Shown here in pieces: positions 3,827 to 50,700 of a stretch of DNA of 64,000 nt. This DNA comes from Naegleria gruberi (Eukaryota): the NCBI GenBank assembly GCA_000004985.1, contig GG738866.1; one strand, given 5' to 3'. The notes beneath the pieces are model-generated. The model was not told where the DNA came from. It saw only the letters and a program-made list of their open reading frames with translations, and did not search any database. A program made the position numbers and the translations under genes. The stretch's first letter is position 1, and each line of letters starts with the position of its first letter.

Positions 3827-5309
3827 TTATCTACGAGTACAAATGAGTTGACCTCTTGGATGTAAACCTTCTTCTTCCAAAGTCTTGTTAATATTAGCTG
3901 ATGTGAGGGAGTATGTTTTTGGTGGAACACCTGGGCAATTGAATGAGAAAGTAGAATCCTTAACCAATGTGGCAATGTGAGCATGGACAGCCTTAATGGT
4001 ATCAGTTGGTTTGAATTTGGCAGTTATGGTTGTACCATCCAAAAGACGAACTCTGATGGCACTTTCTTGTGGTTGGGCAGGAGTTTGAGTGGTAGTTGGA
4101 GTGCTAGTGGCTGAGGATGAACCTTCAGAGCTAGTTGGAGTGGTGTCACGAGCGAGGAAGGCCTTCAAACCCATTCTTTGCAAATCAGTGAGATCCTTTT
4201 CGGCTTGACGAAGTTCTTCAGCCTTACCTTCTTGTCTGAATCTGTCCATCTTTCTTCTAATTTTATCTTCTTCGAGCAATTGTTTCATTCTGAGTTTTTC
4301 CTTCTTTTCGTCTTGCTTTTCCTTCTTGAATAATTCCAAATCTCTCTTCTTTTGATCTTCCTTGAGCTTTTCCATAGTTTCCATGGCCAATTTACCTTGT
4401 TCTCTACGTTTTAATTCTCTTTCCCTTTGTGATTTCTTTTCCTCTTCTTCCATCTTTCTCTTATTTTCCATTCTCTTTTGTTTGAGAAGTTCCTTCATTT
4501 CTTCAGCACGTTTCTTCTTATCTTCTTCAGTTTCAACAGTGAATTGAATCATTTCATCAATATCAGGATCTTCTTGATGTTCAAGCAACCATTCAATACA
4601 TCCTTCCTTTGAAGGTGGTTGTGGTGAATTCAAGAGAGCCTTCATTGATCTCAATTTAGAAAATTCCATTTCCATAAGTTCCTTAAGAATGTTAGCATCA
4701 ACAACTTTTTCAATTTCAGCCATAACTTGTTCATCAGAAACAGTTGTATCTACAGCTTTGGTTTCAGAGCTTGATGATTCTGTGGTGGTTGATGATGGTG
4801 TAGTTGTGGAGGATGAAGAATCAGTCTTTTTAGCATCAGTAGATGGCTTTGTTGTGGCCTTCTTTAACTTGTTTTGCAACAAGGACAATTCAATAGCCTT
4901 ACGAGTTTCGTCATCCAATTCATCAATTTCATCTTCCATAGCATCAACCTTTCTTACTGGTCTATGTTCATCAGCCCATGGATTTTTATAGACTTGACCT
5001 GCCAATCCTGATGAAGTTGTTGTATCAGAACTACTACTACTACTGGTTGCTCCCAAACTTCTACCACCTCCTTGGAAGGCTTGGAATGAATCTCCATATT
5101 CGTTAATCAATTTTTCTACTTTTTGAATATCAGCTCCGACTACAGATGTGAGCTTTGTATTATTCTTATAAAAGACAAATGTTGGCATTGCTCTAACTTC
5201 TTCCTTTGAGGAAATTGCATTATGTTTATCAACATCAACTTTGAGGAAGACAACGTTTGAATATTTAGAGGCAAGTGCTTCATAATGTGGTTTAATCATT
5301 TGACATGGT
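3827..5309 (-). CDS. thioredoxin-UIM-UBA-UBX protein, exon 2. Joined to 5559-5662 across a 249-nt intron (5310-5558), product is about 528 aa
   Basis: The acceptor atatag (rc 5310-5315) is followed by A CCA TGT CAA ATG ATT AAA CCA, giving G-P-C-Q-M-I-K-P and completing WCGPCQMIKP…[13 protein letters not shown]…[10 protein letters not shown] (thioredoxin fold). Downstream motifs: UIM-like [14 protein letters not shown]; UBA-like [11 protein letters not shown]…[16 protein letters not shown]; a K/E/R coiled coil; C-terminal UBX-like [28 protein letters not shown]…PRGQLI. Stop TAA is rc(3827-3829). Confidence 0.75.
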
Positions 5310-5558
5310 CTATATTATTATCATCATTAAATCATATGAATGATTTTGTATATTATTATTATTTCAATCAATGAAAATACAAGATATACATTGTGATCAC
5401 AAAATTAAATCATCGTCATTACATAACCAATTATAATTATCATCATCCGAATATTATTATTATTAAACCAATGATTAATATAAATTATTAATTAGTTAAT
5501 ATATTAATGATCACACAACAATCTCTACCCGATCAAAATCCAACATCACACAACTTAC

Positions 5559-5662
5559 CCACACCATTCAGCATAAAAATCAGCAACCACCAACTTTCCA
5601 GTGCTATTACGGAGGTAACCTCTGAATTCCTCTTCAGAATTAATGTGTTTAACCTTGGACAT
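5559..5662 (-). CDS. thioredoxin-UIM-UBA-UBX protein, exon 1 ([35 protein letters not shown], ends in phase 1)
   Basis: ATG is rc(5660-5662). The exon ends in …GAA TGG TGT GG directly before a GTAAGT donor (rc of acttac 5553-5558). It encodes the front half of the thioredoxin WCGPC motif. Confidence 0.7.
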
Positions 5663-6182
5663 TTTTGATCAACAACAAACAAAAAAAAACCTTTTTTTTT
5701 AAATTTACTTTGGAATTGTGAGGTTATTTTTAGATTTAAAGTTTGTTTGAACTTGGAAATTGTAAACTTTGTTTAATATTATTATTTTTATTCATTTAAC
5801 AAGTTGAATAATATGCAAAATTGATTAAGGGAGCGGAATATCACCATTACATTGAACATGATAAAACTATTCTTTTTCCAAGAAAAATTTGAGAAATTTG
5901 TTAAAAGTTGGATGAGTTCAAAAGAGGTTAGGAAAATAGGCGCGCATTTCACTTTACAGTTTTGATTAGAGTAGAGTCAAGACATGATTGTGAACCAATC
6001 TCAGTAATTTGAGGAAGGAACTTCAACACTTTCTGTAGTTTGAAACGTAGCAAGTTTTCACATAAGGTTTCGAATATACAATTGTGGAAGGTAAAACAGA
6101 AATGAGTAAAAAGAAAGAGGTGGAGAAACGGAATCACTCTACAACTAATCAAATGCTAATGTGTCTGTTCTCATTGTTGTAC

Positions 6183-6576
6183 AGCACGTTTACTTCAAGT
6201 TTGACAAGATTTGGGGAAATTAAAATTGTTTTTTTTAAAATTTAAAGTATTTCATCTTTCAATTTTGATTTGGCAAGTAAACTCAACTCCATTTGAAAAG
6301 AATCTGTAACGATAATATTTTATTCAACAAAATGCTAATTTCTCGATGGAATTAAGGTAGTTTTGAAATCTGACTTCAAATTATGAATCCTCGCATTGAC
6401 ATACCCCTTGGGGTGGCAGCATTCTCAAAAATATGTAGAAATGAGTAAGAACGAGTGGTTAGGTGTTGTTCTATTGAAATGCTTATTTTGGATTTGACAG
6501 CAGAAGAACAACAAAATTTTTTCTAAATAATTTATTTTCTTTCAAAAAACGCGTCAAATTTGAAGTAAACGTGCTG
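6183..6576. mobile_element. non-autonomous MITE (394 bp) with 24-bp terminal inverted repeats and flanking TA/TA, Tc1/mariner (Stowaway-like) type
   Basis: Left TIR CAGCACGTTTACTTCAAGTTTGAC (6183-6206); right TIR GTCAAATTTGAAGTAAACGTGCTG (6553-6576), whose reverse complement matches the left TIR at 23/24 positions. Both ends are flanked by TA (6181-6182 and 6577-6578). The interior is AT-rich and non-coding. Confidence 0.6.
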
Positions 6577-6802
6577 TATCATCTGAAAATGATTATTGTA
6601 CGAGAATCGAATAATGTTAAAAATATGTTGAAACGTGATAGATCGAACATTTCAGGGCCAAACTCCATATTTCCAAATGAGTAGCAAATGTGAAACCACA
6701 ACATCAAGTTAATACATTGGAGTTCCTTCCTTAAATTACTGAGATGCGCCAATTCTGTCAAAGTTGTACAATTAATAAGTCACAAATCAAAACCAATTTT
6801 GG

Positions 6803-7432
6803 ATGCCATTTAAGGAAACTTTAAAAACCAAAGAAATGTGTCAGCTCATGGCGTCAAGGCTTGTGAAATGGTTCATGCCTACCGCCAACTATCATGTTCG
6901 AAAAACAATCAAAAAAAACACAATGATGAACAACTCTAACATCAAGGAATTACATTTTAATAATCAAGAAACAAGCCTTGTTTCGAATGAAAAGATGATC
7001 AGCTCACCATTATCAGAAGAAACATGCTGTACTAACGAACCAGAGAGGGTTTGGATTCATTTCGGTCACATTCCACATGTTTCGAATAGTTTACAACCAA
7101 CAAGCCTTGAGCAAATGAAATCAACTCTTCACCAACCTAAAGTGATGATTGAGAAACAGAGAAAAACAGAAAGACTCCTTCAGGATAGAATCACAGGTAA
7201 ATTATTCTATCAATCAACCGAATCTCATTCGAAATCTCTCAAACAACCTCTGTTTATCCCATCTCAATTCAACGATTCTGAAAGAAAGCCTCCTTCGATC
7301 AAGGAAGAACGTAGAAGAGCCAAAGAGAGGTCTCAAAAAGCCTTGTTAGAAAGCATTCGAAACCAGCCTATTTCACTTCCAACATCCTATTCCATCGTGA
7401 GAAGAGTACTTAACTTCGATGATGAGGAATAA
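6803..7432 (+). CDS. hypothetical basic/Ser-rich protein (209 aa). It is the intact founder copy of the local ~1-kb tandem repeat family
   Basis: ATG…TAA ORF. The whole ORF region reappears in decayed form (frameshifts and deletions) in downstream repeat copies B and C. The product has no recognisable domain and ends …KERSQKALLESIRNQPISLPTSYSIVRRVLNFDDEE. Confidence 0.4.
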   Translation: MPFKETLKTKEMCQLMASRLVKWFMPTANYHVRKTIKKNTMMNNSNIKELHFNNQETSLVSNEKMISSPLSEETCCTNEPERVWIHFGHIPHVSNSLQPTSLEQMKSTLHQPKVMIEKQRKTERLLQDRITGKLFYQSTESHSKSLKQPLFIPSQFNDSERKPPSIKEERRRAKERSQKALLESIRNQPISLPTSYSIVRRVLNFDDEE

Positions 7433-8088
7433 TCAAAATGTCCACCCAAATATCACCAAACGTTCTACGTTCCCTCCAAATAATGGCCTTATATAATAAA
7501 CTTCAATTGTAATCTCAAAAATTTCAGATCTCCTTCCTGTTTCAAGAAAATCTTTTAAAGGAATTTTTGAAGGAGATTTATTTGGTACAAAACTTCCATT
7601 ACTCCAAGCAATTATTAATTGTTGCAAAAAATTGACCTTATTTATCAGAAATGCCCGAGATCATTTTCTCCATTCTGTCACCTTGAAAAAATTGCATATG
7701 AACAAAAGTTCATTCTCGAATTACCAATTCTAAACTTTGAAACTTTAATGGTTTCGAATAATACAACGACTCCAACCACGATTGTATTTGCTCATTTCCT
7801 TATTCTATTTGATCTTTGATGAAAATCGTTTAGGCGAATCATATTATTAAAATGTCATTTTCATGCATGCTTAATATTTTCGAAATGGTCAATAAACTAC
7901 GATATTCGAAATGTAAAGTGACTAGGATAACTAACTTAACTATTACCTTTTTACATTTGTGAAAGATTGAAAAATTCTCATAAAAGTTTCGAATAGATGT
8001 TATATATACCAACAACATCTCTGCTACTCATACGACATGTCATGCATCCAAAATAATACACCATTTAGTCCAGAGACACTTTCCACAT
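7066..8088. repeat. tandem repeat copy A (about 1.0 kb unit; overlaps the 3' half of ORF 6803-7432 plus about 650 bp downstream)
   Basis: The unit begins at TTCCACATGTTTCGAATA (7066) and the next unit begins at the same motif at 8072-8089. Internal segments align to copies B, C and D at roughly 75-90% identity. Confidence 0.6.
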
Positions 8089-8560
8089 GTTTCGAATAAT
8101 TTACATCCAAAAAGCCTTGAGCATGAATTAACTCTGCAACACCTAAAATTATGATGATTGAAAAACAGAGAAAAACTGAAAGACTCCTTCAAGATAGAAT
8201 CACACACAGAGTCTTTCAACATCCTATTCCAACACGAGAAGAGTGCTAAACTTTGCTGACGATGAATAATCAAAAATCACACAAATATCATCAAACGTTC
8301 TACGTTCCATGCCAACACCATAATAAATTTCATAAAATCTCAAAAGTCGTTCCAAATAATTCTATAAAAGGATTTATTGAAAGAATGTCCAAGCAATTTG
8401 ACATACTTGGTCCTCTTCAATTACCTTATAAAAATGACCTTATTTATCACAAATGCCGATCATATTCTCCTTCCATCAACCACAGCTGTCTCCATGAAAA
8501 TTGTTGATTAAAATAATCAAACAGACCCTTAATTGGAAGATCATCATGTTGCATCTCAGT
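8089..8560. repeat. tandem repeat copy B (5' part of the unit, with an approximately 175-bp internal deletion relative to A)
   Basis: 8089-8215 aligns to 7078-7195 and 8216-8560 aligns to 7384-7700, skipping A's 7197-7383. The reading frame of the copy-A ORF is destroyed (an early TGA). Confidence 0.6.
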
Positions 8561-8743
8561 TAGGGTTCTTTTTGAGATGCAATTCTCTGATTGAGACGCT
8601 AACCCTGGTAAGACTGTGTAGTCTGATTGTGTGGGGTACTTATGTAAAATGGAGTTCAATACTTGTTGAAGAAAATTTTTGAAACAATTTTTCACAACAT
8701 TCAAGAGTTAAACAAATAAACAACAAACAAGTTGAGTTATCTG

Positions 8744-9217
8744 ATGGAAAGTTCAAGAAGAATGGGTGGTGGCTCATCTGGAGAGGTTGCAATCATGATG
8801 GAAGAATCAGAAATGTTAAAGGAAAGAGATCAGGAAGGCTTGGAAAGGTATTGTAGAATAGTTTCGAATACATGTGGAGATTATCCTTTGGCATGTTGGA
8901 GTGGAAGGCTTCCCTTTTTTACTTCTATTGATGAGAGTGTGCATAACACGAATCATTGGGATGATCTTTTCAATCAATACTATTCAACTCAACATGTATT
9001 CGAAACATGTCAGGACGAATTGAAACTTTCCACTTTGAAAAGAAAGAGAAGAGTGAAAGAGCCTTCTTTGAGTGCAACACATGAAGAACCTATTGACAAC
9101 GAGGAACAAGATGAATTAGTACAGCTGAATGAAGAGGATTCATTCTCTGGACGAAACATTAAAAAGACGAAACGTTTACATGCATGCTCTTCATTATCAG
9201 AGCAGAAGGAAGAATAA
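8744..9217 (+). CDS. hypothetical 157-aa protein (acidic ends, KRKRR basic patch) embedded between repeat copies
   Basis: ATG at 8744; the track's 8732 start is TTG. It ends TAA at 9215-9217. The composition is richer in G+C than the flanks. It contains two inverted ACATGT/TTCGAA motifs, and no homology is recognised. Confidence 0.3.
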   Translation: MESSRRMGGGSSGEVAIMMEESEMLKERDQEGLERYCRIVSNTCGDYPLACWSGRLPFFTSIDESVHNTNHWDDLFNQYYSTQHVFETCQDELKLSTLKRKRRVKEPSLSATHEEPIDNEEQDELVQLNEEDSFSGRNIKKTKRLHACSSLSEQKEE

Positions 9218-9399
9218 ACATCAAAATTATATTCACCCATAAACATGTTCATTCAATATAAAGAAAGAATTCGTTTTTTTATAGTTTTGTTTTTGTTGAT
9301 CAGAATAATGTGAATGAATTGTTTGAAACTTGGACATGTAGTGATGGTAACGAATGGTATCTGTAAACTCTAGAATAGGTTTCCTGAGAATATCATCCA

Positions 9400-9982
9400 T
9401 TTCGAATAGCATCTCTCCAATATTTCACTTCCCAACAACATCTTTCAATCTCTGAAACGATGCAGTAGTTTCAAATGATATCCCTGCTAAGATTGAAAAA
9501 CTTGATAATCACACTATCTTAGTCACGGTTAATATTTCATATTAATTGCTTGGATGATATTGGGGATTCCAATAACACTGAGCTTACATCGAAAAAGCGT
9601 TGAACAAATGAATTAACTCTGCAATACCTAAAGTGATTATTGAAAAACAGAGAAAAACTGAAAGACTCCTTCAAGATAGATAAAATCACACAAATATCAT
9701 CAAACGTTCTACGTTACATGCCAACACCACAAAAAATTTCATAAAATCTCAAAAATTCAGGTCTCTTTCCTCTTGTTCCAAATAATTCTATAAAAGGATT
9801 TATTGAAAGAATGTCCAAGCAATTTGACATACTTGGTCCTCTTCACTTACCTAATAAAAATGACCTTATTTATCACAAATGCCGATCATATTCTCCTTCC
9901 ATCAACCACAGCCTAAAAAACCCATGAAAATTGTTGATTAAAAAAATCTAACAGACCCTTAATGGAAGAGCATCATGTGCTC
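9400..9982. repeat. tandem repeat copy C (partial unit, further deletion between two AATCACA direct repeats; truncated by the 50-N gap)
   Basis: 9590-9982 aligns to 8100-8560 (for example AAACGTTCTACGTT…GGATTTATTGAAAGAATGTCCAAGCAATTTGACATACTTGGTCCTCTTCA is near-identical). 9400-9560 aligns to 47210-47340 on the far side of the big gap. Confidence 0.6.
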
Positions 9983-10032
9983 NNNNNNNNNNNNNNNNNN
10001 NNNNNNNNNNNNNNNNNNNNNNNNNNNNNNNN
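9983..10032. other. 50-N assembly gap
   Basis: A run of exactly 50 n, directly abutting the 3' end of the U2 gene. Confidence 1.
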
Positions 10033-10040
10033 TAATAATA

Positions 10041-10249
10041 GGAGAAAGGGTGGCTCCAAAACTGACGGATAGTGCAATGTCTGCTTGAAACCTACCAAAG
10101 GGTGCTCTCAACTTGTTTCCAAGGAGGCACACCTCTGGACCCGACAAAAAATTGAGTTAATAGTAAACGCGCCCCGTAGGACGCTTTCAGCTATTAAACT
10201 GAAAAGAACAGATACTACACTCGATCAAAGCCAAAAGGCCGAGAAAGAT
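10041..10249 (-). ncRNA. U2: U2 spliceosomal snRNA
   Basis: The minus-strand sequence is ATCTTTCTCGGCCTTTTGGCTTTGATCGAGTGTAGTATCTGTTCTTTTCAGTTTAATAGCTGA…AATTTTTTGTCGGG…. This matches the canonical U2 5' end (AUCGCUUCUCGGCCUUUUGGCUAAGAUCAAGUGUAGUAUCUGUUCUUAUCAGUUUAAUAUCUGA), including the branch-point-binding GUGUAGUA and an Sm site AAUUUUUUG. The 3' end is approximate. Confidence 0.85.
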
Positions 10250-10379
10250 GTTTTGTAGAAAAGGCTTACCAGTAGTGTATAAATGCCATTTCAAAGTGGC
10301 TTTGTTGGTGGAGAAAATTTGTGGGATTTGAATATTTTTAAACAAGTTTGAAAATAAAATTGTGAGGAATGAAAAAGCC
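10250..10379. promoter_or_regulatory. shared divergent snRNA promoter region between U2 (minus) and the U3-like gene (plus)
   Basis: The region is only about 130 bp. A TATA-like TATTTTTAAA sits about 35-45 bp upstream of the plus gene and TTTATACACTACT about 30 bp upstream of U2. A central GTGGCTTTGTTGGTGGAGAAAATTTGTGGG element could be a shared USE/PSE. Confidence 0.35.
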
Positions 10380-10589
10380 ATCACATACCTTTCATTGATC
10401 CATATGTTCAGTTACAAAGCTTTTAGTTCTTTATTGGCTTCGTCTTTCATGATCACTGGAGCGGAAAGAAGAAAAGCGTTTCGTTTGAACATGTGCTTCG
10501 CTTCACATAGAACAAAGCAAACTTGGTACTACCTAGGTATTGTTCTTGTGATGTCATATTGATGACATCGATTGATGGTGCGAAGATCG
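10380..10589 (+). ncRNA. candidate U3-like box C/D snoRNA (Pol III-type, T-run terminated)
   Basis: The 5' ATCACATACCTTTCATTGATCCATATGTTCAG resembles U3 box A'/A (…ACUAUACUUUCAGGGAUCAUUUCUAUAG). TCATGATCActgGAGCGGAAAGAAG resembles box C'/box B (GAGCGUGAAG). CATATTGATGACATCG resembles box C (CAUUGAUGAUCG). The 3' GTCGGCTG before T10 is an imperfect box D. Boundaries are approximate. Confidence 0.4.
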
Positions 10590-10599
10590 TTGTCGGCTG
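10590..10599 (+). terminator. Pol III-type oligo-T terminator (T10) ending the U3-like transcript
   Basis: GGCTGTTTTTTTTTTA lies immediately after the box-D-like element. Confidence 0.45.
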
Positions 10600-10705
10600 T
10601 TTTTTTTTTATTATTTAAAATAATTTGTTAACGGTAATATTTTTAAAATTACCAAACTTAACACTAGAGGGTATATTAAACCTTTTATTTTACAATTAAT
10701 GTGCT

Positions 10706-10776
10706 CGTCTCGTGGTGTAATGGTAGCATAGTGGACTTTGAATCCATTGACGGAGGTTCGATTCCTCCCGAGACGG
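10706..10776 (+). tRNA. tRNA-Gln(UUG): tRNA-Gln (anticodon UUG), cytoplasmic type, 71 nt, no intron, CCA not encoded
   Basis: Acceptor CGTCTCG pairs with CGAGACG as a perfect 7-bp stem, with discriminator G. D arm GTGT/AATGGTA/GCAT carries an A-box TGGTGTAATGG. Anticodon stem GTGGA/TCCAT; loop CTTTGAA gives anticodon TTG. T arm GGAGG-TTCGATT-CCTCC carries a B-box GGTTCGATTCC. It closely resembles eukaryotic tRNA-Gln (GGTGTAATGGT.AGCA…GGACTTTGAATCC). Confidence 0.9.
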
Positions 10777-10797
10777 TAAACGTGGCGAGCCATGAAA

Positions 10798-10802
10798 TTT
10801 TT
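10798..10802 (+). terminator. Pol III terminator (T5) 22 nt downstream of tRNA-Gln
   Basis: GAAATTTTTATTTT follows the tRNA 3' end. Confidence 0.5.
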
Positions 10803-11058
10803 ATTTTCAAATTGTTCAAATTGATGCATCACTTGTATGTTAATTTTGATGATACTCCAGTTCACTCCATCAATTCCACACAAAATTTCTCCATTAAGCT
10901 GAAATACCGTACTCAACGGTCCAAAATGAACACTTTTACAAAAACTGAAACAGCCCATTCAATGATTCACTTTGCACAATTTGCTATCCACGCAAACGCT
11001 CCCAACACCAAGATTTCAAAGATTTCGCAGCAAACCAAAATCCAAATAAAAAAAATAA

Positions 11059-14000
11059 NNNNNNNNNNNNNNNNNNNNNNNNNNNNNNNNNNNNNNNNNN
11101 NNNNNNNNNNNNNNNNNNNNNNNNNNNNNNNNNNNNNNNNNNNNNNNNNNNNNNNNNNNNNNNNNNNNNNNNNNNNNNNNNNNNNNNNNNNNNNNNNNNN
11201 NNNNNNNNNNNNNNNNNNNNNNNNNNNNNNNNNNNNNNNNNNNNNNNNNNNNNNNNNNNNNNNNNNNNNNNNNNNNNNNNNNNNNNNNNNNNNNNNNNNN
11301 NNNNNNNNNNNNNNNNNNNNNNNNNNNNNNNNNNNNNNNNNNNNNNNNNNNNNNNNNNNNNNNNNNNNNNNNNNNNNNNNNNNNNNNNNNNNNNNNNNNN
11401 NNNNNNNNNNNNNNNNNNNNNNNNNNNNNNNNNNNNNNNNNNNNNNNNNNNNNNNNNNNNNNNNNNNNNNNNNNNNNNNNNNNNNNNNNNNNNNNNNNNN
11501 NNNNNNNNNNNNNNNNNNNNNNNNNNNNNNNNNNNNNNNNNNNNNNNNNNNNNNNNNNNNNNNNNNNNNNNNNNNNNNNNNNNNNNNNNNNNNNNNNNNN
11601 NNNNNNNNNNNNNNNNNNNNNNNNNNNNNNNNNNNNNNNNNNNNNNNNNNNNNNNNNNNNNNNNNNNNNNNNNNNNNNNNNNNNNNNNNNNNNNNNNNNN
11701 NNNNNNNNNNNNNNNNNNNNNNNNNNNNNNNNNNNNNNNNNNNNNNNNNNNNNNNNNNNNNNNNNNNNNNNNNNNNNNNNNNNNNNNNNNNNNNNNNNNN
11801 NNNNNNNNNNNNNNNNNNNNNNNNNNNNNNNNNNNNNNNNNNNNNNNNNNNNNNNNNNNNNNNNNNNNNNNNNNNNNNNNNNNNNNNNNNNNNNNNNNNN
11901 NNNNNNNNNNNNNNNNNNNNNNNNNNNNNNNNNNNNNNNNNNNNNNNNNNNNNNNNNNNNNNNNNNNNNNNNNNNNNNNNNNNNNNNNNNNNNNNNNNNN
12001 NNNNNNNNNNNNNNNNNNNNNNNNNNNNNNNNNNNNNNNNNNNNNNNNNNNNNNNNNNNNNNNNNNNNNNNNNNNNNNNNNNNNNNNNNNNNNNNNNNNN
12101 NNNNNNNNNNNNNNNNNNNNNNNNNNNNNNNNNNNNNNNNNNNNNNNNNNNNNNNNNNNNNNNNNNNNNNNNNNNNNNNNNNNNNNNNNNNNNNNNNNNN
12201 NNNNNNNNNNNNNNNNNNNNNNNNNNNNNNNNNNNNNNNNNNNNNNNNNNNNNNNNNNNNNNNNNNNNNNNNNNNNNNNNNNNNNNNNNNNNNNNNNNNN
12301 NNNNNNNNNNNNNNNNNNNNNNNNNNNNNNNNNNNNNNNNNNNNNNNNNNNNNNNNNNNNNNNNNNNNNNNNNNNNNNNNNNNNNNNNNNNNNNNNNNNN
12401 NNNNNNNNNNNNNNNNNNNNNNNNNNNNNNNNNNNNNNNNNNNNNNNNNNNNNNNNNNNNNNNNNNNNNNNNNNNNNNNNNNNNNNNNNNNNNNNNNNNN
12501 NNNNNNNNNNNNNNNNNNNNNNNNNNNNNNNNNNNNNNNNNNNNNNNNNNNNNNNNNNNNNNNNNNNNNNNNNNNNNNNNNNNNNNNNNNNNNNNNNNNN
12601 NNNNNNNNNNNNNNNNNNNNNNNNNNNNNNNNNNNNNNNNNNNNNNNNNNNNNNNNNNNNNNNNNNNNNNNNNNNNNNNNNNNNNNNNNNNNNNNNNNNN
12701 NNNNNNNNNNNNNNNNNNNNNNNNNNNNNNNNNNNNNNNNNNNNNNNNNNNNNNNNNNNNNNNNNNNNNNNNNNNNNNNNNNNNNNNNNNNNNNNNNNNN
12801 NNNNNNNNNNNNNNNNNNNNNNNNNNNNNNNNNNNNNNNNNNNNNNNNNNNNNNNNNNNNNNNNNNNNNNNNNNNNNNNNNNNNNNNNNNNNNNNNNNNN
12901 NNNNNNNNNNNNNNNNNNNNNNNNNNNNNNNNNNNNNNNNNNNNNNNNNNNNNNNNNNNNNNNNNNNNNNNNNNNNNNNNNNNNNNNNNNNNNNNNNNNN
13001 NNNNNNNNNNNNNNNNNNNNNNNNNNNNNNNNNNNNNNNNNNNNNNNNNNNNNNNNNNNNNNNNNNNNNNNNNNNNNNNNNNNNNNNNNNNNNNNNNNNN
13101 NNNNNNNNNNNNNNNNNNNNNNNNNNNNNNNNNNNNNNNNNNNNNNNNNNNNNNNNNNNNNNNNNNNNNNNNNNNNNNNNNNNNNNNNNNNNNNNNNNNN
13201 NNNNNNNNNNNNNNNNNNNNNNNNNNNNNNNNNNNNNNNNNNNNNNNNNNNNNNNNNNNNNNNNNNNNNNNNNNNNNNNNNNNNNNNNNNNNNNNNNNNN
13301 NNNNNNNNNNNNNNNNNNNNNNNNNNNNNNNNNNNNNNNNNNNNNNNNNNNNNNNNNNNNNNNNNNNNNNNNNNNNNNNNNNNNNNNNNNNNNNNNNNNN
13401 NNNNNNNNNNNNNNNNNNNNNNNNNNNNNNNNNNNNNNNNNNNNNNNNNNNNNNNNNNNNNNNNNNNNNNNNNNNNNNNNNNNNNNNNNNNNNNNNNNNN
13501 NNNNNNNNNNNNNNNNNNNNNNNNNNNNNNNNNNNNNNNNNNNNNNNNNNNNNNNNNNNNNNNNNNNNNNNNNNNNNNNNNNNNNNNNNNNNNNNNNNNN
13601 NNNNNNNNNNNNNNNNNNNNNNNNNNNNNNNNNNNNNNNNNNNNNNNNNNNNNNNNNNNNNNNNNNNNNNNNNNNNNNNNNNNNNNNNNNNNNNNNNNNN
13701 NNNNNNNNNNNNNNNNNNNNNNNNNNNNNNNNNNNNNNNNNNNNNNNNNNNNNNNNNNNNNNNNNNNNNNNNNNNNNNNNNNNNNNNNNNNNNNNNNNNN
13801 NNNNNNNNNNNNNNNNNNNNNNNNNNNNNNNNNNNNNNNNNNNNNNNNNNNNNNNNNNNNNNNNNNNNNNNNNNNNNNNNNNNNNNNNNNNNNNNNNNNN
13901 NNNNNNNNNNNNNNNNNNNNNNNNNNNNNNNNNNNNNNNNNNNNNNNNNNNNNNNNNNNNNNNNNNNNNNNNNNNNNNNNNNNNNNNNNNNNNNNNNNNN

Positions 14001-46959: not shown

Positions 46960-47560
46960 GCCATACGGCTTACCAAACCTATACTTTGAGACCTTAATAG
47001 GTTCGAATAAGACAATGACTCCAACCACAATTATATTTACTCATTGCCTTATTCGATTTGATCTTTGATGAAAAATCGTTTAGGCGAATCAGATTTTAAT
47101 TGAATGAAATGTCATTTTCATGCAAGCTCAATATATTCGAAAAGGTCACTAAACTGCGCTATTCGAAATGTATTGACTTTTTACTATTGTGAAAGGTTTG
47201 AAACAGTGTCAAAAAAGTAGTTTCAAATAGATGTTTCTAAAGTCGCCAAAGATTGAAGAACTTGATAACCACTTGGTTAATATTTCAAATTGTTAATTGT
47301 TTAGGATGATATTTGGGATTCCAATGCCAGGTTTTGAGATAATGGTGGGCTTAGAATTTAACGAAAATGGTTTACCTGTTGTTTGCCTTCTTGACGTGTT
47401 TTGAAGCTTGGGAATACACTACAATTTCCTTTTTTATCTCAAAACGCGGCATAAAAATGAGTTTACGTCTGATTCCAATAATTCCAACAATGAACTGCTC
47501 GACGCATGTCATGCATCCAAAATAATACCCCATTTAGTCTAATCAACCCAAGAAACTAAA
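46960..47560. repeat. tandem repeat copy D (3' part of the unit) on the right side of the assembly gap
   Basis: GGTTCGAATAAGACAATGACTCCAACCACAATT…GATCTTTGATGAAAAATCGTTTAGGCGAATC…GACGCATGTCATGCATCCAAAATAATA aligns to 7741-8075 of copy A. An insert at 47210-47340 matches 9400-9560. Confidence 0.6.
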
Positions 47561-47716: not shown

Positions 47717-50700
47717 CTAATTTATTTTATTACTAAACCATGAATCAAAGTCTTCTTCTTCTTCATTATTAGATTGAGCAGTAGTGGATGATGTATTGAT
47801 AGGCACATTCTTAATGCTTGCATTTGATAGCCTCTTGGTCTTGTTTGATCCAGTATTCTCGGTCTTTCTGAAGAATTGTGAAATTGTTTGCAACTTTTCA
47901 GCCTCTTCCATAATCGATTGTTGTTGTTGAGATTTGGAGGTATGATCTTCGAAATTAGGTTGTGGACTTGTAGCTTCTGATGATTGTGGCGAGTTCAAGT
48001 CTTCCTCTTCCTTGTAGGATTGTTTTAATTGATTGAAAAGATAACTCTGTTGATGTTCTGGAAGTACAACCTTATGAGTTGGTATTTCTTCCTTATTGTG
48101 AGGTTCAGTATTTGGTGACTGTACTGAACTTGTATTACTGACATCTTCGAAAATTCTATTGTTGGATGTCTTTTCAACACTATATTTTGCATCGTCTTCA
48201 TCGTCACTGCTATTATTATTACTTGCAAGGATTTGATTTGATACAGTGCTTCGGAAATCAAACTTTGGCTGGTGAGTATTTACATTGCTTGGTGCAATAT
48301 TTTGAGTGGAGTGAGATTGGCTTTCTGGGAATTCGTCACTATCAGATGATTCTTCCTTTGGAGAGAGTAAATCTTTCAATTCATTTTGTCTTTCCAAAGT
48401 TGAGAAGCTCATTGTTGGTTTTCTTTCCACAAGTGGAGAATCGAGAGGAGACTTTTTGAATGGCAACAAAACGGCTACCTTTGTTATTTGAGAAAGGAAT
48501 GTTTCCTTCTTCCCAACAGTGGATTCTTCTGCTGTGGAATCATCTGAAGGAGTGTTGACTCCGTCCCTTGAGGGCATATTGCCCAGTGGTGTATTGGTTT
48601 TCATGGCCATATCCCTGTACTTTTTCTCGACACCTTCCATACGTCTTCTCAGGGTGCTGAAGGTGCTCTCTTCATTTTCATCATCATCCACTGCATCTTC
48701 TTCATCTGCAGTTGGAGGTCTTCTCAGTTTAATCTTGTTAAAAACATATCCTGTCAATACAAGAATTTGAGAGAAGAAGAAGAGTAAAAAGGCCAACAAG
48801 TAAAATACCCACTCCTTAAGCTTGGTTGATATTCTAGCACTGTGCATTGAGTTGACCTTATTTTCCAATTCCTTGAGTCTACTTTCGTAGAGCTTGATAT
48901 CCTCTTCATGACTGGTTACTTTATCCTTAGTGATGGCTTGGGCTGAGTTCAACTGTAAGACAATAGTCGACAGGTGATTCATTCTTGACTCGATTTTTTC
49001 CACCTTATTCTTTAACTTATCAACAGTGACGTTCTTGTCAGTCATTTGCAGTCTTGATTGTTCGTGAGCATCATTAACTCTCTTCTTGGTATCCAGCAAG
49101 TCCAACTTGAGATTGTGAATTTCATTCATCAAGGTCTTTTCAGTGCATTGTAATTCCTCCTTTACCTTTTGAACAGCACTTGTTTGTTCCTTATGACCTG
49201 AGGAATACAATAAGCCATCATAAAGAGCGTATGATCGTGGAGTTTGTGAGACAAAAGTAGATTGTGAAATATCAGTAGAACTATCTCCTTCTATAGTGGA
49301 TTGGAAAACTCTTCCAGAGAGTAAATCATCTGAAACATCAATATTGAGGGAGTCTAGGAGAGTTTTACGTTCTGGCTTGTCGCGTGGTGTTAATTGAGAT
49401 GGTATACTTGGATTCAGACTCATACGATCCAGCAACTCTAAATCCTTTGCGGAGAAGGCAGGATTCTGGTAAGGAATGTATTGGAAACGAAGATGTACTT
49501 GAGAGAACGTTTTGGTACCTAGTGGCGTAATTAGACAGAACCAATCATCTAGAATTCTATCCTTGGCCAGTTTAACTCGAGAAATTGGAATTGAAACAAA
49601 TCCCAGACACATAATCTCATTCTTAGATTTAGGCTTTGGTGGACTGTGGAAAATTTCAATAGAGATTGAGCTAGATTCATCAGAAACGTAGAATTTAAAT
49701 TCCTCTTGCCACTTGAGTTTCTTGTTTAGATAGGCCCCACCAAGATTCATTGTTGTGTGCTTCTTTCCCTCACATAAAATTTCACAATACGTCACATAGT
49801 CTTCCAGTAGGATATTTTCTGTATTCTCCTCTTCATTTCCCAAAGCGTCCATTGATTGTAAGGATTTGACTCGCTTTTGAAGTGGTTGACCAGAGACTGA
49901 TGTATTCAGTGCTGACTCATTGGTATTATATCCCTCAACGGATTTCAAGTTTCTAGTCTGAACGTCAGTCACATACAGTTCTCCAATAGCCTCTCGCTTC
50001 TGCTCTTCCGGTGGAACATATACATAATCATAACTCTCAATATCTAGTGACATTCTATCGTTCTCTCCTCTCACCTTTGGTTGTGCCAGATAGTTTGGAA
50101 TAATTTTCTTTGGCACTGACTTGATAAAGGATGGAGCATTCTTCACTGTCGAAACGCCCTTCTTCACTTCATCTCTGATATTTTTCTTAAATTCCTTAAA
50201 ACTGTGCTTTATAGCGTGGGCAGGATTGGTGGTATTGGCGTATTCAGGGTTTCCAATTCCTTTAAATTTGTTACTAGTAGAAGAATTATTTGGTGTGATC
50301 CAATTTGTTGGAAAAGGTTTCTTGACACCACTACTAGAAGCTCTAGAAGGAAGACTATGTACATGAAAATGACCTTTTGAGTCCTCACTTGGTTGAGTCG
50401 TGCTTGTGGTTGGTTGAGCATGATCCCCTATTGTTGAATCTTCCGAATTAAGGTACTTTTCTGCATCCTCTGATTGACTTCTTTTCGGAGACGGTTTTCG
50501 GAATAAACTTTCACCACTGAGTTGAAACTTTTCTCTTTGGTGATGTCTAATAGACCCAGCTCGCTTATGTGATTTTTCTTGTTTTCCATGTTCATCCTCA
50601 ATAATAATTTCCGTACATATAGAAACAGCAGCTGAATTTTCATCGAAAGAATTGCTTCTCTTTTTCACCATTGGAGTTAAATCAGTTGGCGAAGGAGGTG

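Follow-up and report, generated by a model that had tools for sequence, protein, structure and literature searches.

The locus considered here belongs to the amoeba Naegleria gruberi and lies on contig GG738866.1 of assembly GCA_000004985.1, within a stretch of 64,000 nucleotides that we refer to as the window (G+C content 35%). It holds an intact gene (gene A), two partial copies of that gene (copies B and C), a second gene located between these copies (ORF2) and pieces of a spacer repeat, X. Gene A and both copies are found inside one gap-free contig, 6803-9982, and the window has two runs of N, one of 50 N at 9983-10032 and one of 35.7 kb at 11059-46783. An earlier note on this DNA had described a recently amplified gene followed by an array of progressively decayed copies of about 1 kb, and had assumed a dictyostelid host. 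The latter assumption fails, as ORF2 (8762-9217) is 100% identical to P0002, a 'predicted protein [Naegleria gruberi]' encoded on a 469-kb scaffold, and N. gruberi is a heterolobosean.

Gene A and its two partial copies

An open reading frame (ORF) of 209 codons is indeed intact at 6803-7432, as the earlier note stated, and the N. gruberi annotation contains a shorter version of it, NAEGRDRAFT_48817 (XP_002677483.1), with 194 amino acids and a start at 6848. Its ortholog in a relative, protein P0001 on a 1311-bp metagenome contig from the European Nucleotide Archive (L001, from ERZ929261), has 169 amino acids and is 95% identical to the gene A protein. In L001 a 1-bp indel upstream breaks the frame of 6803-6922 and with it that of the initial 40 codons of the 209-codon ORF; what is conserved is therefore the ORF 6923-7432 on the plus strand, beginning with MMNNSN. 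Judged by this comparison, the start codon of gene A is probably at 6923, giving 169 amino acids instead of 194 or 209, and both the annotated start at 6848 and that of the longest ORF at 6803 are probably too far upstream.

Over the 510 bp of the conserved ORF, gene A and L001 differ by 21 substitutions, 12 synonymous and 9 non-synonymous, with no indels, while indels are present in the flanks. A neutral simulation with random placement gave a mean of 5.2 synonymous changes against the 12 observed (P=0.001), the remaining two reading frames gave 3:17, and a crude ratio of non-synonymous to synonymous rates (dN/dS) is about 0.19. With all 169 codons kept open in the relative, an excess of synonymous changes and an indel-free frame, gene A is, on comparative grounds, a real lineage-restricted gene under purifying selection. 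The comparison thus supplies a probable corrected start (6923) for an N. gruberi gene and shows an orphan gene under purifying selection. The suspicion that its product is an orphan without a recognisable domain was borne out. The protein has no match in Pfam or PDB, a HMMER search against 1.84 billion representatives returned no real remote homologue (one extra match was a repetitive artefact), no relatives were found in the metagenomes of the Joint Genome Institute (JGI), and the only homologues recovered in these sensitive searches were the N. gruberi protein itself and the 95% identical metagenome protein. The protein is small, basic and acidic, and predicted to be mostly disordered: its AlphaFold model has a mean predicted local distance difference test score (pLDDT) of 54 and is unstructured except for two helices, at residues 73-91 and 126-147. 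In being short and predicted to be mostly disordered (a prediction made for gene A only), it resembles other orphan genes. We found no expression tables or literature naming NAEGRDRAFT_48817 or the ORF2 gene, NAEGRDRAFT_67165.

The repeated part of gene A, p1 (7040-7716), runs from codon 40 of the conserved ORF through the 3' flank, and it recurs in copy B (8070-8549, consisting of p2 and q2) and in copy C (9581-9982, p3 and q3), the latter ending at the 50-N gap that begins at 9983. Self-BLAST aligned A with B over 7067-7195 and 8077-8204 (86.4%, E=3e-36) and, in a second block, over 7376-7520 and 8213-8345 (77%, E=3e-24); read directly from the sequence, CCAGAGA is common to A 7040-7046 and B 8070-8076. 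A and C matched over 7088-7189 and 9581-9680 (84%, E=3e-24), and B and C over 8273-8549 and 9682-9978 (88% gaps included, E=7e-108), including a 138-nt block that is 99% identical. In the flank, B and C are 97.0% identical to each other; the identity of A to B/C is 75-86%. Global alignment of B with C scored 83-87 against a shuffle maximum of 17-22 (200 shuffles), and pairwise similarity among the gene A copies is real, with E values of 1e-24 to 1e-108. Homology to gene A begins at A 7040/7067 for B (8070/8077) and at A 7088 for C, so that the 5' end of the ORF is present in neither.

The arrangement does not qualify as a tandem array. Tandem Repeats Finder reported none in 5000-12000, the copies are unevenly spaced (1010 bp and about 1500 bp from start to start) rather than head-to-tail at a regular period, the content between them differs, and ORF2, which is unrelated to gene A, intervenes between B and C.

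The lesions of the copies define their genealogy. Copy B lacks A 7196-7375, 180 bp, with 8 bp in its place, and meets its first stop in the frame of A, a TGA, at 8152-8154; the corresponding stop in C is at 9614-9616, such that the two copies terminate in that frame after 25 and 11 codons, respectively. The earlier note was therefore right about an early stop and close in putting the missing segment of B at about 175 bp, and it overlooked that B is also without the 5' part of the ORF. Shared by B and C, and present in neither A nor L001, are the loss of 1 bp after the ATG at A ~7121, which alone suffices to break the frame of both, flank deletions of 9, 8, 3 and 2 bp, and many substitutions; both also lack the segment A 7197-7375, which is spanned by the larger gap of C. 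B alone has two deletions, of 2 and 17 bp, and an insertion of 2-3 bp; C alone has a 78-bp deletion and another that took out X block 3 along with the beginning of p, as far as A 7087. On the strength of these lesions the copy tree is (A,(B,C)): the shared disabling lesions indicate that one dead fragment was copied again, as opposed to a serial passage from A to B to C. By the same comparison, B and C are not decayed whole genes; they were 5'-truncated from the start, and the notion of gene copies in progressive decay is thus not upheld.

Deletion at short direct repeats, which the earlier note had proposed, is seen both in C (AATCACA) and in the relative's second contig, L002 (AATCA, where AATCAAA is absent). 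In B, AATCACA borders the stretch absent in C on either side (8198 and 8275), and C has a single AATCACA there (9684). The endpoints are thus as claimed; a clean repeat-to-repeat loss it was not, because the junction has 4 extra bases.

We also asked of the 180-bp segment absent in B whether it could be an intron, which would make B a retrocopy. Its left edge in A reads GGTAAAT; there is, however, no matching AG, and the changes relative to L001 are mostly synonymous, for which reasons the segment is coding and the intron reading was rejected. Processed pseudogenes and truncated copies of non-LTR (long terminal repeat) elements do resemble B and C in being 5'-truncated with a common 3' end and disabling mutations. 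Unlike these, however, the present copies adjoin their parent, show no poly(A), no A-run at the homology ends, no target-site duplication and no reverse transcriptase, and their homology extends through the 3' flank and on into the upstream region of the next gene, over hundreds of bp; that between B and C runs to the gap and that between B and L002 continues into ORF2.

Spacer X and the arrangement in a relative

Pieces of the second repeat, X, come directly before both B and C. The fullest copy, X_D (46970-47539), is situated beyond the 35.7-kb gap and downstream of NAEGRDRAFT_57936, with about 180 bp between it and the stop codon of that gene. X_A (7717-8069), between p1 and B, comprises blocks 1 and 3 and matches X_D over 7721-8001 and 46970-47235 (75%, E=5e-53) and over 8036-8070 and 47505-47539 (97%), with no counterpart of 47236-47504. 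X_C (9464-9573), directly upstream of C, is block 2 and matches X_D over 9464-9573 and 47216-47325 (72%, E=4e-12), with a shorter match at 9489-9573 and 47249-47325 (76%). Overall, X_A and X_D are 75-84% identical; this divergence of 16-25% falls into the same age class as that between A and B (14-25%).

A new junction, X|p, is present at 8069/8070, where the end of X (the equivalent of 47539) is joined, with a 1-bp overlap, to codon 40 of gene A. Past 47539 X_D continues differently, and upstream of 7040 the sequence of gene A is unrelated. The end of the block is thereby connected to its own beginning, with the breakpoint inside a gene. Copies A, B and C as well as X_A and X_C are all on the plus strand and collinear, and these adjacent paralogous blocks are similar with E from 1e-12 to 1e-108.

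The relative carries a related arrangement on two contigs. L001 aligns with window 6740-7672 at 89.5% overall, its homology past gene A ending at about 7716, and presents gene A, then about 530 bp, then the start of a paralogous ORF2 copy. Compared with the sequence preceding ORF2 in the window and in L002, the intergenic DNA of L001 reaches only about 70-78% identity, the level of paralogues, and its spacer contains an inversion of ~40 bp (L001 1058-1100 versus window 8501-8538, 84% on the opposite strand). We considered whether L001 could be a simple recombinant of p1 and p2; site by site it is A-like to about 7530 and mixed beyond, which makes no clean recombinant. L002, a 1069-bp contig from the same metagenome reached via the ORF2 cluster, aligns with window 8169-9221 at 88.5% gaps included and presents a B-like fragment of gene A with extra deletions of its own, followed by ORF2. 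Its intergenic DNA is 92.8% identical to that of the window, the level of orthologues, and in the shared flank it is 95.8% identical to C and 94.3% to B. Within the B-like fragment, whose set of deletions differs from that of B, L002 1-117 retains an open frame of 38 codons with an A-like end (…RRELNYADDE*), which looks accidental because B of the window is out of frame.

With L002 showing both units in the relative, the simplest reading of the two contigs would be a genome with one unit of gene A, flank and a first ORF2 copy, and another of a B-like fragment, flank and a second ORF2 copy; that L001 and L002 come from one genome we infer from their equal levels of divergence. The B-like fragment upstream of ORF2 in the relative implies that the duplication separating A from B predates the split of the lineages, and the B/C duplication would date from about the time of that split or later. 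Amplification was hence recent, as had been supposed, solely with respect to the B/C event, at about 3-5% divergence, and not with respect to A versus B/C, at 14-25%.

The same contigs bear on the question of whether the copies are genuine at all. Mis-joined haplotypes or collapsed reads in a draft Sanger assembly could perceivably produce such a pattern, and the 50-N gap at the end of C, the 35.7-kb gap and a redundant 1694-bp scaffold that repeats the 3' end of the gene beside X_D at 100% identity would fit with this. Yet A, B and C share one gap-free contig, their divergence of 3-25% and their many indels go far beyond what alleles would show, and A-type and B-type copies are both held by independent metagenome contigs of the relative. 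An artefact of assembly is, in our opinion, barely credible.

Two probable nested duplications and competing explanations

The order and mechanism of the events have to be deduced from the homology map, the shared and private lesions, the purifying selection on gene A and the relative's arrangement. We consider it likely that the locus arose by two nested local tandem segmental duplications in N. gruberi, followed by deletions, and that it contains no new kind of element. In the first, old event (14-25% divergence), a block would have been copied that reached from inside gene A (7040, codon 40) to the end of X, thus comprising the 3' 77% of gene A together with the 3' flank, the adjacent gene (ORF2) and spacer X; the earlier proposal that the gene and its downstream region were amplified would have to be amended accordingly, the gene having contributed its 3' part only. 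This event would have created the X|p junction at 8069/8070 and left gene A intact, and copy B would have been dead on arrival because the second copy had neither promoter nor start codon. In the second, young event (about 3-5% divergence), ~1.5-1.8 kb would have been copied, from the middle of X through B, ORF2 and the 3' flank of ORF2, placing X_C and C after ORF2 with a junction at 9463/9464. The copies would then have been trimmed by deletion, in several cases at short direct repeats such as those in C and L002. The ORF2 copy of the first block would have been lost in this strain, as a consequence of which p1 now abuts X at about 7717, and a further ORF2-like copy would follow C, hidden in the gap at 9983, which would explain the break of the assembly there; a further ORF2 copy, about 97% identical to 8550-9460, is thus what we predict this gap to contain, and the sequence preceding X_D would be unrelated to p. 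As far as can be judged from the sequence, two tandem duplications would account for every junction. The flank of B probably still serves as the upstream region of ORF2, and B and C themselves would have no function of their own.

Several observations speak against this history or temper it. The copies of p and X were compared within the 64-kb window, and the gaps at 9983-10032 and 11059-46783 hide the sequence after C and before X_D. L001 and L002 are metagenomic, and it was we who assigned them to one genome. The distal 3' flank of L001 is a mosaic of A-like and B-like states, so gene conversion may blur the dating. Finally, two duplications do not account for the local enrichment of a short motif, RTTTCGAATR, that is described below.

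Some of these points lend themselves to a different explanation, namely that p and X derive from a dispersed or mobile repeat family of N. gruberi that is so far unclassified, that B and C are insertions, and that gene A took in one copy as 3' exon sequence or the element captured a part of the gene. X does occur again about 40 kb away (46970-47539), the copies are mosaics with different internal deletions, they adjoin two assembly gaps, a frequent result of repeats, a foldback of 750 bp with outer arms of 29 nt that are 93% complementary lies just upstream, and the flank of L001 is not cleanly orthologous to any single copy. Moreover, N. gruberi repeats are mostly unclassified, only a small fraction of them having been classifiable in a methylome study that also mentions Nanopore data for the species (PMC12344493). 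On the other hand, the block ends carry no terminal inverted repeats, LTRs, poly(A) tracts or target-site duplications, none of 12 ORFs of the region has a Pfam domain, and thus no transposase or reverse transcriptase either, and the sequences fit neither a DNA transposon nor a miniature inverted-repeat transposable element (MITE), an LTR element or a long interspersed nuclear element (LINE). The p core was unmatched in viral and JGI metagenome collections, protein searches found no further annotated N. gruberi protein with gene A or ORF2 sequence, and the B-like fragment at the same site upstream of ORF2 in the relative indicates an old and stable structure. A dispersed repeat is therefore unlikely.

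Another conceivable scenario is that B and C have been kept for a function, be it as promoter or 5' untranslated region DNA of ORF2, as a source of antisense or small RNA that targets gene A, or by encoding an alternative short protein. What prompts this thought is an island of 45 bp in the 3' flank (7628-7671, 8430-8470, 9856-9896, L001 908-951 and L002 279-319), AAAATTGACCTTATTTATCAnAAATGCC(CGA)GATCATTTTCTCC, which is about 85-95% identical in all five copies amid surroundings of 55-75% and may be a terminator element of gene A or a promoter element of ORF2. B is also directly upstream of ORF2 in both lineages, and the 38-codon frame of the L002 fragment, with its A-like C-terminus, could be counted in favour of a protein. 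However, frameshifting indels between B of the window and the L002 fragment leave no conserved coding frame, the stops in B and C come early in the frame of A, no Rfam family matches at the locus, and lesions pile up freely, with B, C and L002 each carrying a different deletion. Retention for a function is, to our mind, very unlikely.

If the two nested duplications are taken as the working explanation, the locus closely resembles the 5'-truncated gene duplicates produced by tandem segmental duplication, which survey work on young gene duplicates from C. elegans and Drosophila assigned to a 'partial/chimeric duplicate' class. As in these, the breakpoint lies inside a gene, the upstream copy is intact and constrained, the downstream copy, without promoter and start codon, is decaying, a new junction joins block end to block start, and a neighbouring gene is co-duplicated. 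What differs is that there were two nested rounds with heavy trimming by later deletion, that the parent is an orphan gene, and that block ends beyond the gaps are not visible. A comparison with birth-and-death families, which the earlier note had invoked, holds in part: copies have been gained and lost between close lineages, as the relative has an ORF2 copy after gene A that is absent here and the extra copy C is found here, and disabled copies stand beside a functional gene. There is, however, no functional paralogue family, as gene A and ORF2 are each seen in a single intact copy, and the extra copies of gene A were never complete genes.

The locus is accordingly ordinary in kind, a by-product of duplication and deletion, and our understanding of such loci in general is unchanged by it. 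Its value lies in being a datable example of how a breakpoint inside a gene leaves dead fragments, one of which is then copied again, in a protist whose repeats are mostly unclassified.

ORF2, the TTCGAA motif and the surroundings

ORF2 (XP_002677484.1, plus strand) is itself an orphan gene of 151 amino acids within the duplicated block. Its coding sequence is 96.4% identical to that of its ortholog P0004 on L002, with an in-frame 15-bp difference near the 5' end, and of the changes in 417 bp, 5 are synonymous and 10 non-synonymous (P=0.32), which amounts to no detectable constraint, whereas gene A is under purifying selection. Protein searches found no homologues of ORF2 beyond N. gruberi-like sequences, and, as is typical of orphan genes, gene A and ORF2 both lack homologues beyond N. 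gruberi-like genomes among the 5.8 and 1.8 billion proteins searched.

For the motif mentioned above, in the form TTTCGAAT, the window has 16 sites where 2.08 ± 1.44 would be expected, a count that none of the shuffles attained. Of these sites, 12 are located in 6068-9407 and two in X_D (47135-47168), which puts 14 of them into about 4 kb; they share the consensus RTTTCGAATR, with no conservation in the flanks. A longer form, ACATGTTTCGAATA, is found exactly at 7075, 8085 and 8997 (minus strand), and a longer near-palindrome, ACATGTTTCGAATACATGT, at 7075, 8085, 8857 and 8992 (minus strand). Sites occur in both orientations in gene A, ORF2, X and the upstream foldback, in coding and non-coding DNA alike, and two of them form a 19-nt inverted repeat in ORF2 (8861-8879 / 8988-9006). 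Five block boundaries (7067, 7376, 8001, 8077 and 9464) lie no more than 15 bp from a motif, and other boundaries are far from any. The motif contains a CpG in a CpG-poor genome, and this is in part why the observed/expected ratio of CpG is 0.64 at 6000-9982 versus 0.42 in the remaining non-N sequence of the window. Two of four sites have changed among the X copies, which are non-coding, so selection does not obviously preserve the motif, and we found no literature on it.

The motif may represent a cluster of binding sites, a fragile palindrome or the remains of small duplications of older date. An instance of the last would be ACAAGCCTTG, after which TTTCGAATGAAA stands at 6969 and AGCAAATGAAA at 7101. 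One could also imagine a candidate site for a lineage-specific DNA-binding protein, perhaps the small basic protein encoded by gene A or that encoded by ORF2, that co-regulates the cluster or promotes breakage and template switching. If true, this would make the locus a self-contained, self-rearranging cluster of orphan genes; it is a long shot, to which we attach very little probability. Two other candidates were rejected. First, MITE-like or introner elements bounded by inverted GTTTCGAAT (8861-9006 in ORF2 and 7079-7366 in gene A) share only the 10-bp core and have no target-site duplications, and the stretch in gene A is under coding constraint; the fold z-score of -3.3 of the inverted-motif stretch is due to the 19-nt arms alone. 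Second, the motif is no B-box of a tRNA gene or extra TFIIIC site, having T at the B-box position G53 and A at C61; the sole site that fits a B-box is in X_D, GGTTCGAAT at 47000.

Just upstream of gene A, at 5998-6745, we noticed a foldback-like element that may be a MITE-like insertion. Its outer arms (5998-6026 / 6717-6745) are those cited above, its inner arms of 64 nt (6180-6243 / 6515-6578) are 70% complementary, and its DNA fold z-score is -2.9; the start of L001 falls inside its right arm.

Between copy C and X_D, on a 1-kb island (9983-11058) between the 50-N gap and the 35.7-kb gap, are a U2 small nuclear RNA gene (10046-10251, minus strand) and a tRNA-Gln(UUG) gene (10705-10777, plus strand), the scaffold position of this small contig being based on the assembly alone. 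On the far side of the larger gap, the last 200 residues of NAEGRDRAFT_57936 (window 47720-48319, minus strand) are 100% identical to the 231-residue NAEGRDRAFT_54965, whose unplaced scaffold of 1694 bp is a redundant or haplotype contig and may also hold X_D and sequence of the gap.

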